Shown here: one piece after another, positions 52,919-58,246 of the stretch
Numbering within the stretch: the stretch's first letter is position 1
Layout: every line of letters begins with the position of its first letter
Sequence record: OQ174503.1
Reading direction: 5' to 3' (one strand)
Length of the DNA: 64,000 nucleotides
From: Escherichia phage REP4
Translations under genes and position numbers: made by a program
The notes under the pieces: generated by a model
Database searches by the model: none
Told to the model about the DNA's origin: nothing
The model's input: only the letters and a program-made list of their open reading frames with translations

Positions 52919-53554
52919 TCACAGTTCAGATGCTACGGTGATTACTGCTTCAATGTTTTCTGCCGAGCGTTTAATGTCAAGATACACATTACCATTTTTA
53001 GCGATTTTACATGACATTCCGATATCAGTAAATTTCTGAATATGATGTTCCATCATTTTGTATCCAAAAATTCGCATATTTCCATTGTTGTTAATTTCAA
53101 AATTACGAATTCCGTGAGTGCGTTTTTCTAAAATAGCGAGATAGTTACTACGATAAGTTTCAACTTTTTTAAGAACAAATCCATTTTCATCTAAAAGTTT
53201 TAGCATGAGGTCTTTATCTTCTTCCATATCGGAAGTAATCTCACGAGCTTTACGAGTTGCTCGTTTTTTCAGTAGTTCAGGAGCATTTTCCTGCGCATAT
53301 AAAGTTGCTGCATTTGAAATAATATCCTGAGCTTCACCAGTAATGATTAATCCATCGCCAGATTTCTCCACCAGGCCTTTTTTAATCAATACACCAATAT
53401 TACTATTAACTACTGCATTACCTAAATCTGGATGCACCTCACGAACTTCTGCAGCTGTAATGAAATCTTTCTTAGCAATGGTAATTAAAATCGCAGCAGT
53501 TTTTTCATTCAGAACATCGTTAGAAGCTTTGATGATGTAAGTTACTTTAGACAT
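52919..53554 (-). CDS. motA: MotA middle-transcription activator
   Basis: 211 aa, MSKVTYIIKASNDVLNEKTAAILITIAKKDFITAAEVREVHPDLG... Confidence 0.95.
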   Translation of the reverse strand: MSKVTYIIKASNDVLNEKTAAILITIAKKDFITAAEVREVHPDLGNAVVNSNIGVLIKKGLVEKSGDGLIITGEAQDIISNAATLYAQENAPELLKKRATRKAREITSDMEEDKDLMLKLLDENGFVLKKVETYRSNYLAILEKRTHGIRNFEINNNGNMRIFGYKMMEHHIQKFTDIGMSCKIAKNGNVYLDIKRSAENIEAVITVASEL

Positions 53555-53595
53555 TTTCTAATCTCCGTAATTCTGTATCAGTAGTTGATAGTTGT

Positions 53596-53625
53596 ATAGT
53601 ACCACAGTATGCTTTGGTTGTAAAC
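53596..53625 (-). promoter_or_regulatory. Early promoter cassette for motA, copy 2 of 3
   Basis: rc ATAGTA ...17 nt... TGTAAAC; near-identical to 36421-36450 and 57643-57672. Confidence 0.5.
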
Positions 53626-53655
53626 CGTTTTGTGAAAAAATTTTGAAATAAAAAA

Positions 53656-53675
53656 GGGAGAGCCTCGGCTCTCCC
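53656..53675 (-). terminator. Intrinsic terminator hairpin gggagagcCTCGgctctccc
   Basis: 8-bp stem, followed on minus strand by a U-run. Confidence 0.55.
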
Positions 53676-53680
53676 TAAAA

Positions 53681-53830
53681 TTACTGCATGACTGTGATAA
53701 CTGTCATGATAACACGTTGAATGCCGAACGCAAGAAGACCTCCTGCTACGGCTGGAACAACACCTAAACCCGCCAGTAAAATGCTACCAGATACTAATGC
53801 TGCGCTTGTAATACCAATGAATGGACTCAT
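53681..53830 (-). CDS. Small hydrophobic membrane protein (49 aa)
   Basis: Manual ORF MSPFIGITSAALVSGSILLAGLGVVPAVAGGLLAFGIQRVIMTVITVMQ; ATGA overlap with gene 52 stop. Confidence 0.5.
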   Translation of the reverse strand: MSPFIGITSAALVSGSILLAGLGVVPAVAGGLLAFGIQRVIMTVITVMQ

Positions 53831-55155
53831 TTGATTTCCTCTAAATCTTTAGTGTATTCTGTAACTACATCAGTAGTTTTCCAATATTCGTTTTCTTCTT
53901 TCTTAGCTTTAGCTTCTTCAGCAAGTTTCTTTGCTTCGTCGGAAGTCATATGAAAAATATTCATTCCGACTAGTTTATCAACATAAGAAGAATACATCTC
54001 AATTTTAGAAAGTTCTTCGGTCAGTTCTTTGCGAGTTTTACCCTGTACAACGATTTCACCTGAAATTACTTTCTTAATGAAATGTGCCTTGGCAAAGGCT
54101 AAACGAAATGCTGATTCAGTTTCTTTGATTTTGTTATCAATTCGTTTTTGGACATAAGTTTTACGAACTTCAACGAAGTCTTTAATTAAATCAACTACGT
54201 TATCGTAAACTTGTAACTTTCCTTTCTCGTTGATGACTGTAATATTTTGGGAACGACGCTCAATCAACCCGAAGTCTTTCATGATTTTTGCATGGCGTTC
54301 TTCTTCGTTATCGCTCAAAGAATATTCTTTGCGAAATTTAACTTTAAAGCCAAAACCATGCTCACCACAAGCATCATCCCATGTAATGAAGCCCTTATCT
54401 TCAAGCGGGTCTAAGATTTTACTCACATAAGTTTCACGATCATACTTATACGGAATCTCAGTGATATTCATTTGAGTTCGTGAAGTAAACTTGTACGTTC
54501 CACGAATTTCATATTGACCGTCAATTTCAACGACTTCACCACGAAATTCTGGGAATTCTACCTTCGGTTTAGTTACTTTCTTTCCTTGAAGAACTTGTAA
54601 TACAGCTTTCTTAACAGAAGAAACGCTATGAGGAAGAATGTAAGTTGCATAACCAGTTGCAATACCGGAAACACCATTAAGAAGAACAGTAGGAATAATA
54701 GGCAAATAGAAAGCAGGAGGAATGTGTTCTTTATCTTGATGTACCGGAGCATATTCAGTATCTTTATACACGCTATAGAAATTTTTACTTACACGAGCAA
54801 AAATATAACGACTTGCCGCTGCTTTTTGAACAGTACGAGAACCAAAGTTTCCTTGACCATCTAACAAAGGAAAGTTATTATTCCATGTGTTAGCCATCAA
54901 AGCCCCCGCATCTTGTGCAGAGTTTTCGCCATGATGATACCCAAGGTCAGCTACACCACCTGCAATAGAAGCAAGTTTGTGAAACTTATCTTTATTTCCC
55001 CGTGCCAAATCAAGAGCTCGAGCGATAACAAATCGTTGAACTGGCTTAAATCCATCAATCATATTTGGAATAGCACGATTTTCAACCGTGTACATAGCAT
55101 AAGCCAATGCTTCATTATCAATGATACTTTTTAAATCGCGATTATTCAGTTGCAT
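53827..55155 (-). CDS. 52: gp52 topoisomerase II medium subunit
   Basis: 442 aa; GyrA-like active-site region; T4 gp52 length. Confidence 0.95.
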   Translation of the reverse strand: MQLNNRDLKSIIDNEALAYAMYTVENRAIPNMIDGFKPVQRFVIARALDLARGNKDKFHKLASIAGGVADLGYHHGENSAQDAGALMANTWNNNFPLLDGQGNFGSRTVQKAAASRYIFARVSKNFYSVYKDTEYAPVHQDKEHIPPAFYLPIIPTVLLNGVSGIATGYATYILPHSVSSVKKAVLQVLQGKKVTKPKVEFPEFRGEVVEIDGQYEIRGTYKFTSRTQMNITEIPYKYDRETYVSKILDPLEDKGFITWDDACGEHGFGFKVKFRKEYSLSDNEEERHAKIMKDFGLIERRSQNITVINEKGKLQVYDNVVDLIKDFVEVRKTYVQKRIDNKIKETESAFRLAFAKAHFIKKVISGEIVVQGKTRKELTEELSKIEMYSSYVDKLVGMNIFHMTSDEAKKLAEEAKAKKEENEYWKTTDVVTEYTKDLEEIK

Positions 55156-55159
55156 AAAT

Positions 55160-55300
55160 TTACCATACTAGTGAATGTAGTGCCATAATAACATCAGAAA
55201 TGAAAAGCACGACTTGAATTAATCCGAACATTACTCCATAATATAGTGCTACCAATAAAGCAGCAAGGGCTAACGAGTAGCCCAAGATTTTCTTAATCAT
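55160..55300 (-). CDS. Tiny hydrophobic protein (46 aa)
   Basis: Manual ORF MIKKILGYSLALAALLVALYYGVMFGLIQVVLFISDVIMALHSLVW; one predicted TM. Confidence 0.45.
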   Translation of the reverse strand: MIKKILGYSLALAALLVALYYGVMFGLIQVVLFISDVIMALHSLVW

Positions 55301-55445
55301 TTTTATCCAATAATTTAAATAGTGATAAAACTGCTACCATGCCTTGGGCTAAAGATTGTGAAAACACCGAAGTTTCTCCGGTTACTAATGTTCCGACAAA
55401 TACAAATGACCAGCAGAAAAAAGCTATACTATAAACAAATTTCAT
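55293..55445 (-). CDS. Tiny hydrophobic protein (50 aa)
   Basis: Manual ORF MKFVYSIAFFCWSFVFVGTLVTGETSVFSQ...LLDKND; GAGG SD. Confidence 0.45.
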   Translation of the reverse strand: MKFVYSIAFFCWSFVFVGTLVTGETSVFSQSLAQGMVAVLSLFKLLDKND

Positions 55446-55474
55446 AATTTCCTCATTATTAAATATAGGATTTC

Positions 55475-55636
55475 TTAATCATTTTTAATCATCTTAAGTA
55501 AACCGACAAAAGTAGAAAGAACCCAGCCAATAAACAGAAAACTTAAGAATATCGGACCAGGGGTCCATACGCCTAAAAAGAAGCAAACCGAACAGACTAT
55601 AGCCATAATAAGTTCAATAAAAATTAGGATAATCAT
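55475..55636 (-). CDS. Tiny hydrophobic protein (53 aa), possible ac-like
   Basis: Manual ORF MIILIFIELIMAIVCSVCFFLGVWTPGPIFLSFLFIGWVLSTFVGLLKMIKND; GAGG SD. Confidence 0.45.
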   Translation of the reverse strand: MIILIFIELIMAIVCSVCFFLGVWTPGPIFLSFLFIGWVLSTFVGLLKMIKND

Positions 55637-55646
55637 ATTTTCCTCA

Positions 55647-55724
55647 TTAGCGTCCGAAGACGCCTTTAGTTTTAAGATTGTTACGATAGAACTGCATTAC
55701 ATGTTCGTTATGGAAATTACTCAT
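55647..55724 (-). CDS. stp: Stp peptide (25 aa)
   Basis: Manual [28 protein letters not shown] directly after ndd (TAATG overlap), followed by hairpin gcgtcCGAAgacgc. Confidence 0.6.
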
Positions 55725-56179
55725 TAGTATGCCTGCAAAACAAATTTAAAGTTATCAGCCAACATACGGTTCATTTCTTCAAGTGTTTGATACTCAGAAT
55801 GATGATTACGAGTAAACGCTAAAGCTAACTGACCTTTTCCAAATCCCGTCGTCAGAGGTTTCATCTTAGAAGCAGGTAGATAAAATACTGTGTATGGAAC
55901 ATTGTTATTTGCAATAGTACGCGCAAGCTGAGACCGACGCTGACGAATATGACTTAGAACTGCACTGAACCCTTGCTTAGAACGCTGATTACCTACATAA
56001 AATCGTGCAGATACACACGGACTATCAAATGGACCACCAAATTTGCTCACTAAAAAGTAAAATCCAGGGTTAGACAAAATGTCTTTATGCGGAGTTCCAA
56101 AAACCCATTCACCGCCCTTGATTGTACCAATAACAGTTGCGCCTGCATTATTCAGATCAGTAACAGTCATATATTTCAT
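55724..56179 (-). CDS. ndd: Ndd nucleoid disruption protein
   Basis: 151 aa from ATG 56179 (GAGG SD), [25 protein letters not shown]... Confidence 0.9.
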
Positions 56180-56239
56180 TTTAATTTCCTCTAAATTATT
56201 TTCTACTCCAAGGCCGCATGAATACATACGGCCGATAAA

Positions 56240-56455
56240 TTAATCGTCGCAATCGACGCTTAATTCCCAGAACTCTTCTACGGTATAAGTTTCAGTATCA
56301 TTTTCAATACAGAAACGTTCATTACTGTTATTTGCTAAAGTAGCGTTAACTGTCATTTTCTCGCTAGTGCTCTTAAGAGGTGAAATACGAATTAACTGAT
56401 CACCATTATCTAAACAGAAAATTTCACCAACTTTTACATCTTTAAAAATTTTCAT
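56240..56455 (-). CDS. Hypothetical acidic protein (71 aa)
   Basis: Track ORF. Confidence 0.55.
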   Translation of the reverse strand: MKIFKDVKVGEIFCLDNGDQLIRISPLKSTSEKMTVNATLANNSNERFCIENDTETYTVEEFWELSVDCDD

Positions 56456-56570
56456 AATTCACCTCAGGGAGTATAAAATCCAAATGCAGTTGTTGACCAT
56501 CCCATCCAATATGGGATATTTGCGCCAATGTAAAATACAAGAATATAAAACCAAATGCTTAGTAAATTCA

Positions 56571-56768
56571 TTATTTTACACCATTCCAAATTGTTTCAAC
56601 CACAGATTTCAAACCATTTTGGTGAATATCCATTCCGACAACTGCCATCAAATAAATTCCAACTACAACTGAACCCAAGGCGAAAATCAGCATGAAAATG
56701 AATAAAGCTGGAAAAATATTATCGAAAAACCATTCCATAAATGTAAAAGCACTGCGTTTACGCTTCAT
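56571..56768 (-). CDS. Small membrane protein (65 aa from ATG 56768)
   Basis: MKRKRSAFTFMEWFFDNIFPALFIFMLIFALGSVVVGIYLMAVVG...; GAGG SD. Confidence 0.5.
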   Translation of the reverse strand: MKRKRSAFTFMEWFFDNIFPALFIFMLIFALGSVVVGIYLMAVVGMDIHQNGLKSVVETIWNGVK

Positions 56769-56775
56769 ATTTTCC

Positions 56776-56889
56776 TCACATAAATCCAAAGTAAGCGTTT
56801 AATACATCAATCATTAAAACGATTGGGAATATACTCAAAACTACTAGTATTATAACTACATTCCATATAGCTTTAACAATCTTTTTCAT
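56776..56889 (-). CDS. Tiny membrane protein (37 aa)
   Basis: MKKIVKAIWNVVIILVVLSIFPIVLMIDVLNAYFGFM with GGAGG SD; the track ORF is extended upstream through a promoter element. Confidence 0.4.
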   Translation of the reverse strand: MKKIVKAIWNVVIILVVLSIFPIVLMIDVLNAYFGFM

Positions 56890-57132
56890 TTTCTGTTCCT
56901 CCGTAGTTGATAGAGTAATAATACCACAGAGGAACAGTCTTGTAAACAACTTTTTTAAAAATATTCGTAATAAATGTGAATACCAACTACTACTGCTGAA
57001 ACTTGCGCAACCCACCATGCACAAGCAATAAGTACAGAATTCAAAATTTTCATAATAACCTCATCACAAAAGTAAATGTTAAACAAATTAATGGAATACT
57101 AATTAACCAAACAAAACACCACCATAATGAAC

Positions 57133-57405
57133 TCATAGTTCAATCTCAGCGATTTTCATTTCATTACTATTAATAGCCGCTTTAAGACTATCTGAAAGAA
57201 TTACATTCCAGTGGTCATTCATATGACCATTAACTAAGCGTGTAATTTCTTCGGGAGTTGAAAAATAAGGCGTATCAGACTCCCAATGCGATAGTCCCAA
57301 GCGAGTATAAATCATACCTTCATCATCGCTAGAATATTCAACTGACACAAACTCATCAGTTATTTTATGTTTAGCGTAATAAAATTTAAATTTCATTTTA
57401 CTCAA
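57133..57405 (-). CDS. Hypothetical protein (90 aa)
   Basis: Track ORF. Confidence 0.55.
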   Translation of the reverse strand: MSKMKFKFYYAKHKITDEFVSVEYSSDDEGMIYTRLGLSHWESDTPYFSTPEEITRLVNGHMNDHWNVILSDSLKAAINSNEMKIAEIEL

Positions 57406-57608
57406 TAATCCGCTAAAAGATCGACGATTGCATCACGAAGACACTTATTCGCAATACGTTTAAGAGCAATTTCAGTTTCTGGAGCATTTTGAATAATCAT
57501 CGAATTCAATTCAACCTCAGCAAACTGAAGTTCTTTAACTAATTCAGCTTTATATTTTCCTTGCCCTTTCTTAGCTTTTGCTCGTTTTAATTCAGCCGTA
57601 GTAAACAT
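57402..57608 (-). CDS. Hypothetical basic protein (68 aa from ATG 57608)
   Basis: MFTTAELKRAKAKKGQGKYKAELVKELQF...; GGAG SD; track ORF extended through promoter repeat. Confidence 0.55.
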   Translation of the reverse strand: MFTTAELKRAKAKKGQGKYKAELVKELQFAEVELNSMIIQNAPETEIALKRIANKCLRDAIVDLLADY

Positions 57609-57642
57609 TTTATTCTCCAAATCCGTATCAGTTGATAGTTGT

Positions 57643-57672
57643 ATAGTACCACAGTCCTTGTGGTATGTAAAC
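57643..57672 (-). promoter_or_regulatory. Early promoter cassette, copy 3 of 3
   Basis: rc ATAGTA ...17 nt... TGTAAAC immediately after denB stop. Confidence 0.5.
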
Positions 57673-57688
57673 CGTTTTGTGAAAATTT

Positions 57689-58246
57689 TTAAATGGAAAG
57701 ATACCATCCGCTGTAGTTGCTTTTTCTTACAACCTTACGAAGGTCTTCTCTATCACCGATGAACTTCGGAGTGTACTGGATGACACCTGGGTGAATTTCT
57801 TTAGTGTTGAATATAATTATACAGTCAGCGACCTGATGATTCAGAATGGGCCCTAGATTTATTCCAGAACCGTATGGATACTCTCCGCTGCATCCTGTTG
57901 TTACAGAAATCCAACGTGAGTCAGTTTGATGTGTCTTAACTTCTACACGAAGCCCGCAGTATCTTGGATGCGCCAATACATCCCATGCGTATGTATACGG
58001 GTCATTAACATCCTCTTGGCCTTTGTTAACATACCCGCTTAACCAATCTGCTACAAAAAACTCTGCATACACAGCGATACGGCATCTTTCGATGACTTCT
58101 GCTTTATCCTGATTAGGATTTTGCTTTAAAGAGTATCTTGCTGTATCAGCAATTTTGACCTTCATTTCACTAGTCAAGTCATTGTTCGACATGGTAAATG
58201 CCGGAATCTGAAATAGTCTCTGTAAACCCGGATTCGTTTTCTGCAT
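57689..58246 (-). CDS. denB: Endonuclease IV
   Basis: 185 aa ORF at the T4 denB position and length; identity by recall. Confidence 0.75.
   Translation of the reverse strand: MQKTNPGLQRLFQIPAFTMSNNDLTSEMKVKIADTARYSLKQNPNQDKAEVIERCRIAVYAEFFVADWLSGYVNKGQEDVNDPYTYAWDVLAHPRYCGLRVEVKTHQTDSRWISVTTGCSGEYPYGSGINLGPILNHQVADCIIIFNTKEIHPGVIQYTPKFIGDREDLRKVVRKSNYSGWYLSI

Follow-up and report, generated by a model that had tools for sequence, protein, structure and literature searches.

Three small membrane-peptide genes, two of them alternative cassettes, between stp and gene 52 of a T4-like phage

Introduction

Between stp and gene 52 of Escherichia phage REP4, three very short open reading frames (ORFs) are packed one behind the other, and the peptides of two of them end in nearly the same residues. 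An initial annotation, made from the letters alone, had presented them as single-transmembrane peptides that fall below the thresholds of standard ORF calling and may serve host takeover or anti-defence. The locus hence raises the questions of whether frames of 46 to 53 codons are genes at all, whether the two peptides with a common tail are related, and how they came to lie side by side. We addressed them in the whole stretch of DNA under analysis, 64,000 nucleotides of record OQ174503.1 (hereafter the window), by comparison with related phages.

Results

Gene order around the locus

The window is part of a Tequatrovirus (T4-like) genome, and the 5.4 kb around the locus are 96-97% identical to many Tequatrovirus genomes. 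All genes of this part lie on the minus strand. In the order of transcription they are ndd (55724-56179; PF06591), stp (55647-55724), ORF53 (55475-55636), ORF50 (55293-55445), ORF46 (55160-55300), gene 52 (53827-55155; the topoisomerase II medium subunit, identified from the ORF listing and the annotation of relatives) and motA.1 (53681-53830), followed by a terminator-like hairpin (53655-53676) and by motA (52919-53554), listed downstream of it. The three packed ORFs of 53, 50 and 46 codons are therefore present as first described, on the minus strand, with stp as their upstream and gene 52 as their downstream neighbour. The window stp encodes 25 aa (PF08133, E 2e-20) that match T4 Stp at 25/25 residues, without the terminal Q of the T4 protein. 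The reference annotation of T4 has the same order, namely stp, ac (51 aa), 52.1 (46 aa), 52 and motA.1 (49 aa). The initial annotation had rightly placed the locus in the ac and stp neighbourhood of T4, but it missed that ORF50 is ac and that ORF46 is gene 52.1.

The 49-aa ORF that had been pointed out past gene 52 is motA.1, identical to T4 MotA.1 at 49/49 residues (phrog_3487; PF26886 Phage_T4_Y16H is on record for a homologue). The hairpin just past it, intrinsic in type with a 9-bp stem containing 6 GC pairs and then the T-run TTTTTATTTC, is the first strong terminator-like site downstream of the small genes, and ORF53, ORF50 and ORF46 seem to share one transcript with ndd, stp, gene 52 and motA.1. 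An Rfam search over 53000-58000 matched no RNA family. We also considered a GC-rich hairpin within ORF53 (55553-55567, encoding WTPGP) as a conserved RNA element and rejected it, as it is absent from distant homologues. On the other side of ndd, the further run of tiny ORFs noticed at 56571-57130 corresponds, according to PHROG and Pfam matches and pairwise comparison with T4 proteins, to the T4 genes ndd.2a (56571-56768, 65 aa), ndd.4 (56776-56889), ndd.5 (56955-57053) and ndd.6 (57050-57136), all on the minus strand.

The three ORFs are conserved genes

Each of the three ORFs has a recognizable start signal. The starts of ORF53 and ORF50 are both preceded by AATGAGGAAA(A/T)T-ATG, and that of ORF46 falls within the final 8 nt of ORF50 (ATGATTAA), with the end of ORF46 only 4 nt short of gene 52. 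Translation is hence predicted to begin from strong Shine-Dalgarno (SD) sites or through stop/start coupling, in agreement with the SD site or start/stop overlap first reported for each ORF. The hydrophobicity of the encoded peptides was borne out as well (GRAVY 1.80 for ORF53, 0.90 for ORF50 and 1.73 for ORF46).

Frames as short as these could arise by chance, and we compared the locus with simulated sequences. Under a first-order Markov model with the composition of the region, none of 4000 simulated 477-nt sequences had three ORFs of 46 codons or more on the same strand; with the composition of the whole window, 0.15% did. We then extracted the genes from up to 18 relatives belonging to Tequatrovirus, Gaprivervirus, Dhakavirus, Mosigvirus and Jiaodavirus. 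The three frames are open in four to seven genera and their lengths are nearly constant: all copies of gene 52.1 have 46 codons (five genera), members of the ORF53 family have 52-53 and Ac genes have 49-52. Only vB_EcoM_005 departs from these lengths: 52.1 has suffered a deletion there, and ORF53 is fused into a product of 70 aa as a result. Comparing each relative with the window (Nei-Gojobori method), dN/dS was 0.13-0.47 for ORF53, apart from one comparison with only five differences that gave 1.1, 0.12-0.32 for ORF50, and 0-0.34, mostly about 0.1, for gene 52.1; over the three genes most values fall between 0.1 and 0.35. Since dN/dS is well below 1 and the frames are open in all the relatives retrieved, the comparison identifies ORF53, ORF50 and ORF46 as genuine conserved phage genes. 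The conservation of frame in relatives that had been suggested as a check is thus observed.

It could still be argued that at least one of the ORFs is non-coding: AT-rich intergenic DNA may have left a frame open by chance, or the ORF may be a remnant in decay, as is the spacer between ORF53 and ORF50. The ORFs are indeed very short, certain annotations leave them out, and decaying gene fragments are demonstrably present at the locus (see below). However, the frames keep near-constant intact lengths across genera with vB_EcoM_005 as the sole exception, dN/dS is 0.06-0.35, every ORF is either preceded by a strong SD site or translationally coupled, and the probability of chance occurrence is at most 0.0015. 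Furthermore, the true remnants, unlike the ORFs, contain frameshifts and early stops. We therefore regard a non-coding origin as barely conceivable, and retain the reading of all three as real genes.

The families of these genes are already catalogued, so that the ORFs are not new to annotation: each falls in a PHROG family, and Pfam covers two of the three. That they would escape ORF calling is true in part. The genes are annotated in T4, RB51, Bp7, wV7 and the BASEL phages, but they were missed in the annotation of AnYang and in one gene call on an SRA assembly.

ORF46 is gene 52.1 and ORF50 is an Ac homologue

The identity of ORF46 is the most direct of the three. Its 46 residues are all identical to those of T4 gp52.1 (46/46), and the peptide matches PF24129 DUF7396 with an E-value of 6e-23 and 81.1 bits (gathering cut-off 27), which identifies it as gp52.1, a predicted 46-aa membrane peptide. 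Gene 52.1 was found by tblastn in 729 phage records. The protein is hydrophobic over nearly all of its 46 residues and has the invariant motifs LYYG and FISDVI.

ORF50 is identified by homology as Ac, the protein named for acridine sensitivity or 'resistance'. It aligns with T4 Ac in BLASTP (46% identity, E 2e-11) and matches phrog_2501 (E 1.2e-22), the family that also contains T4 Ac (2e-25) and the Ac-like protein of JS98, and a protein identical to ORF50 in public assemblies has PF26944 Phage_T4_Ac on record. Its nucleotide identity is 88% to Gaprivervirus copies, 80% to wV7 and 65% to T4, which assigns it to an allele class related to RB51 and wV7 and closest to the Gaprivervirus copies. 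In the alignment of the Ac family, S26, V27, Q30 and Q34 are invariant and G35 nearly so; the glycine that matches G38 of T4 is kept in ORF50. Ac-family genes are present in 666 phage records (tblastn). A word-indexed protein search with ORF50 recovered close relatives only, in 6 clusters, and a scan of IMG/VR with it yielded no loci.

ORF53 belongs to a small family of its own

ORF53 matches phrog_9347 over residues 1-53 (E 1.3e-26) and is 92-96% identical in amino acids to the copies of Dhakavirus JS98, AnYang and MX01, unnamed there beyond 'putative membrane protein'. At the nucleotide level it is 96-97% identical to Dhakavirus JS98 and AnYang, and 90% to Tequatrovirus AugustSocin. No Pfam family matched ORF53, no match was obtained with the three peptides and MotA.1 in NCBIfam and PADLOC, and the profiles of the Ac and ORF53 families found no match in the PDB either.

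The family is small. It forms 7 clusters at 90% identity, all close relatives in the word-indexed search, and a search with the ORF53 profile HMM among 1.84 billion proteins returned 4 representatives (at the 50% identity level, E<=1e-3). One of these, a protein of 426 aa, is hit in 6 short stretches that look like a match of hydrophobic composition, and was ignored. Likewise, a scan of IMG/VR retrieved only 5 loci, apparently copies from GenBank phages. On the other hand, tblastn with the distant member P0014 indicates that about 87 phage records carry the family, including phages of Enterobacter, Edwardsiella, Serratia, Kosakonia and Erwinia. The same search with another distant member, P0017, found nothing, probably owing to low-complexity masking. 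The distant members P0014, P0015 and P0017 retain a FIELI...C.FF.G.W.P motif. The position of the family is also conserved, since it lies between ndd/stp and 52.1/52 in Dhakavirus, Gaprivervirus, Tequatrovirus, Kanagawavirus and Winklervirus; in the loci of the last two genera that we examined it occupies the ndd-to-52 interval.

In ORF53, two hydrophobic segments of some 20 residues each flank WTPGP (an invariant W-T-P-G/S in the family), and the first helix has an invariant Glu. AlphaFold2 predicts helices at residues 2-21 and 28-52 joined by a loop (pLDDT 74), which makes of it a predicted two-helix membrane peptide. For ORF50 the model has helices at residues 2-22 and 25-49 (pLDDT 76), the second of which is only partly hydrophobic, with about 11 strongly hydrophobic residues. 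Both models come from shallow alignments of 7 sequences and are of moderate confidence (pLDDT about 75). They render the single-transmembrane label first given to these peptides doubtful, most clearly for ORF53.

The shared tail is a footprint of the gene 52.1 start

Both cassettes end alike, ORF53 in ...LLKMIKND and ORF50 in ...FKLLDKND. The initial annotation had noticed this tail, which is indeed present, but it is not a functional motif. Gene 52.1 starts with ATG-ATT-AAG, and a gene that overlaps it by the 8 nt A-ATG-ATT-AA must encode a protein ending in Asn (Asp where the overlap begins with G), Asp and a stop. Accordingly, proteins that abut 52.1 through this overlap end in ...SND (T4 Ac), ...KND (RB51), ...END (EPIMRB01) or ...KDD (the ORF53-type protein of AugustSocin), whereas the ends differ where 52.1 is not so abutted, as in the first Ac of FriedrichZschokke (...SKNS), JS98 Ac (...FTKK) and the ORF53-type protein of TH40 (...AKQ). 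In the window, ORF53 no longer has 52.1 directly behind it, yet its end is still AAAAATGATTAA. The ATG at this end opens a dead frame, ATGATTAAGAAATCCTATATTTAA, that reads MIKKSYI-stop. As the tail has been kept without an intact 52.1 behind it, and its ATG leads only into this dead frame, sequence comparison identifies the shared KND tail as a by-product of overlap with the 52.1 start.

This result bears on the possibility that ORF53 and Ac are paralogues that have diverged since a local tandem duplication, with the tail reflecting common descent and a functional motif. The two peptides are indeed alike in length and occupy the same slot, both are predicted to fold as helix-loop-helix, both end in K..KND, and the ORF53-type gene of AugustSocin is annotated as an 'acridine resistance protein'. 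Yet BLASTP gave no significant alignment between ORF53 and Ac, hhalign of the two family alignments returned a probability of 0.2%, and PHROG places them in separate families. Their motifs differ too (FIELI..AIVCS.CFFLGVWTP in ORF53, TGETSVFSQA.AQG in Ac), and the two cassettes have their closest relatives in different genera. The overlap with 52.1 accounts for the tail, which differs in genes that lack this overlap. Common descent of the two genes is hence very unlikely, and ORF53 has no detectable homology to Ac. Given that the AugustSocin protein is a member of phrog_9347, its name is likely a mis-annotation, seemingly made by position.

Two alternative cassettes share one slot

The flanks of the slot are conserved: ndd, stp, 52.1 and gene 52 of the window are 93-98% identical in nucleotides to T4 and wV7. 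Together with the identities of ORF50 and ORF53 given above, this marks the window locus as a mosaic. We established the architecture of the slot in relatives by tblastn on the fetched loci. T4, wV7, RB51 and TH57 carry stp-Ac-52.1, and AugustSocin, AnYang and Bp7 carry stp-ORF53-52.1. FriedrichZschokke has two Ac genes (stp-Ac-Ac-52.1). In the Gaprivervirus phages DCP80 and TH40 both cassettes are present and remnants separate them, the order being stp, ORF53, a 52.1 fragment of 22 codons, a 3' fragment of stp, Ac and 52.1. JS98 has the two cassettes in the order reverse to that of the window: stp, Ac, a 52.1 fragment reaching to about codon 24, stp from codon 3, ORF53 and 52.1. There, the 52.1 fragment is fused to the stp fragment, and the joint lies at GAGTAAT, a 7-nt microhomology common to both genes.

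In the window itself, ORF53 and ORF50 are separated by a spacer of 29 nt (55446-55474, minus strand). The last 8 nt of ORF53 and this spacer contain the vestigial 52.1 start ATGATTAAGAAATCCTATATTTAA and then TAATGAGGAAATT, a junction of the type found between the stp stop and the SD site. Aligned with DCP80 and TH40, the window has the same layout but a spacer about 70 nt shorter. The exact junction of ORF53 and ORF50 occurs in none of 50,697 GenBank phage records. It does occur, however, in three independent public assemblies (SRR27732517, SRR35032008 and ERZ1310756), where the same arrangement is found at 98-100% identity, and is therefore natural, not an assembly artefact.

The slot would then be a site of exchange, bounded on the left by the conserved 3' end of stp with TGAGGAAA and on the right by the conserved start of 52.1. 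The presence of both alternative cassettes in the window fits the head-to-tail joining of two [stp-X-52.1] modules, after which the duplicated pieces of 52.1 and stp between the cassettes would have decayed to the 29-nt spacer. The remnants in DCP80, TH40 and JS98 point in the same direction, as they indicate that whole [stp-X-52.1] modules with different X were joined, in either order. From this sequence evidence we infer that the window tandem arose by such joining. The filler of the window spacer, TCCTATATTTAA, is ambiguous in origin, and the tandem may have formed independently rather than by deletion from an arrangement like that of DCP80. Modular shuffling of this kind has been described in the hyperplastic regions of T4-type phages (Arbiol et al. 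2010, PMC2839356; Comeau et al. 2014, PMC4122927).

Discussion

Taken together, the evidence assigns all three ORFs to early genes for predicted small inner-membrane peptides. The account as a whole, comprising the identities of the three products, their status as real early genes, the joining of modules and an action at the membrane, is in our view highly probable. What it adds is modest in each case: an explanation for the tail, a joining of modules documented by remnants, and the non-homology of ORF53 and Ac despite the annotation.

Among the three peptides a phenotype is known only for Ac. Acriflavine inhibits T-even phages that are ac+, whereas ac mutants resist it. E. coli that expresses T4 Ac becomes more sensitive to acriflavine and ampicillin, and the G38R substitution in T4 Ac abolishes the phage phenotype, giving acriflavine resistance (bioRxiv 10.1101/2025.06.30.662393). 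Blockage of AcrAB-TolC by Ac is a proposal only of that 2025 preprint (bioRxiv 10.1101/2025.06.30.662393), and is restated as an assumption in a 2026 PNAS paper (PMC13250531), in which we looked for acriflavine data on BASEL phages that carry ORF53 only and found none. By analogy with T4, the Ac of the window would insert in the inner membrane and impair drug efflux, probably that of AcrAB-TolC, which would explain the classical sensitivity of ac+ phages to acriflavine. As for ORF53 and gp52.1, we would infer, and purely so, that both probably act by binding host inner-membrane proteins too. T4 is viable when the 52.1-rIIB region is deleted (PMC9712115), which indicates that the genes in it are accessory.

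The suggestion that these are membrane-targeted factors of host takeover or anti-defence is hence upheld in part: the peptides are of the membrane type and takeover fits Ac, but anti-defence has adjacency to stp as its sole link. We nevertheless weighed the idea that the three peptides act together with Stp against membrane-associated host immunity. They adjoin stp and appear to be transcribed with it, Stp being an anti-restriction peptide and also the trigger of PrrC, the ORF53 module travels with its own stp copy in E. coli phages, and the Ac slot is hypervariable between conserved flanks, as expected for an arms-race gene. Against this, PADLOC, NCBIfam and the PDB gave no match, and the slots of Kanagawavirus and Winklervirus contain the ORF53 family with no stp annotated in the fetched stretches (a reading of the annotation only). 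The sole known phenotype, that of Ac, concerns accumulation of dyes and drugs and not immunity, and the viability of T4 without the 52.1-rIIB region also speaks against it. We consider an anti-defence role unlikely, and keep to a general action on the host membrane.

A rather doubtful extension is that ORF53 replaces Ac functionally without being homologous to it, the slot then holding interchangeable hairpin peptides aimed at inner-membrane machines such as an RND efflux pump. If so, phages with two cassettes (the window, DCP80, TH40, JS98 and FriedrichZschokke) would widen the range of host variants that they can disable, and an arms race at the membrane would lie behind the high divergence of the slot between flanks that are 93-98% identical. 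Phages with Ac only, with ORF53 only and with both cassettes exist in nature, several of them in BASEL, and offer a ready panel on which to examine the function of Ac and the AcrAB-TolC model. Independently of function, the locus cleanly records, through its remnants, how alternative gene cassettes come to be stacked in T-even phages, and its shared tail exemplifies how overlapping start and stop signals can produce false common motifs in small proteins.

Comparison with known systems places the three genes at different distances from their counterparts. ORF46 is the same as T4 gp52.1 (PF24129 DUF7396; phrog_3595) in sequence, length and position, with no difference between them. ORF50 resembles T4 Ac (gene ac; 'pr' in T2) in having about 50 aa and two predicted helices, in retaining the central S-V-F-x-Q-x-x-A-Q-G motif with the glycine equivalent to G38, and in overlapping gene 52.1 by 8 nt within the ndd-stp-52 early unit. 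It differs in belonging to another allele class, with identities to T4 Ac of only 46% (amino acids) and 65% (nucleotides), and in its position, given that T4 Ac adjoins stp whereas ORF50 is separated from it by ORF53. If Ac does act on AcrAB-TolC, a plausible mechanistic analogue would presumably be E. coli AcrZ, a small membrane protein of 49 aa that binds AcrB. AcrZ is a small helical peptide of the inner membrane, as Ac is predicted to be, a likeness by analogy only; AcrZ has a single helix and modulates the pump rather than blocking it.

ORF53 shares with the phrog_9347 proteins of JS98, AnYang and MX01 the same stp-ORF53-52.1 junctions and 92-96% identity. The backbone is that of a Tequatrovirus in the window and of a Dhakavirus in these phages, and in the Dhakavirus loci an intact 52.1 follows, whereas ORF53 of the window is followed by the dead 52.1 start and then by Ac. 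Finally, the slot behaves like the hyperplastic regions of T4-type phages (PMC2839356, PMC4122927), in which small non-essential genes are swapped, inserted and duplicated between conserved flanks across genera. The flanks differ: those described in PMC2839356 and PMC4122927 are PeSL promoter-terminator cassettes, whereas here they are apparently the stp end with its SD site on one side and the start of 52.1 on the other.

Small gene cassettes between ndd and gene 52

The product labelled 'acridine resistance protein' in AugustSocin/Bas38 (locus L001, 2694-2855) belongs to phrog_9347, the family of ORF53, the 53-aa membrane peptide encoded next to stp in the window, and is no homologue of Ac, the T4 acridine-sensitivity protein. 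The label looks as if it had been assigned by gene position. FriedrichZschokke/Bas41 carries a tandem of two unlike Ac-family genes (L006, 1201-1525), one of the RB51 type (51 aa) and the other of the T4 type (52 aa), which suggests that the two allele classes are not fully redundant.

Another optional cassette of the ndd-stp-52 island is a small gene of phrog_5941, which certain phages carry as an insertion between ndd and stp, and which overlaps the start of stp. Its 57-aa product is hydrophobic and Cys-rich, and ends in ...GGFICFERLCKMCG(V/I)YE. The gene is found in UFV-AREG1 (L003, 2826-2999), TH40, JS98 and the relatives' loci L011 and L021-L024; neither the window nor T4 has it.

The small genes of the stp-52 locus are inconsistently missed by annotation. 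The GenBank record of AnYang has no annotated gene at all from gene 52 to ndd (L017, 856-1243), and on one SRA-assembly contig (L025, 1038-1317) stp and ORF53 were omitted by the gene calls; in the DNA of both, the unannotated small ORFs are nevertheless intact.

Within ORF53, the codons of the conserved WTPGP turn form a 6-bp GC-rich hairpin, TGGACCCCTGGTCCG (55553-55567, minus strand). It is present in close relatives and lost in distant members of the family, and is hence probably a side effect of the WTPGP codons.

Differences from the T4 reference

The stp gene of the window (55647-55724, minus strand) encodes 25 aa and ends in GR-stop (CGC TAA TGA), whereas Stp of T4 has 26 aa and ends in GRQ-stop (CGC CAG TGA). 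The 25-aa form is also found in RB51, and in the stp remnant that lies upstream of the ORF53-type gene in JS98. For ndd.4 (56776-56892, minus strand), the place matching the T4 start, MEEQKMKK, reads TTEEQKMKK in the window, so that translation appears to begin at the internal Met, giving a 37-aa product (MKKIV...).

A single intact frame at 56571-56768 (minus strand) encodes a 65-aa DUF7248 protein of phrog_2401, a form that is also undisrupted in RB51, EPIMRB01 and FriedrichZschokke. In its place, the T4 reference has two short annotated genes (L002, 4933-5129). T4 ndd.2a (40 aa) corresponds to the last 40 residues of the 65-aa protein, and ndd.3 (26 aa) looks like its N-terminal part in another reading frame (ATGAACGTAAACG in T4 versus ATGAAACGTAAACG in the window). 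The T4 pair ndd.2a/ndd.3 hence looks like the product of a frameshift in one gene.
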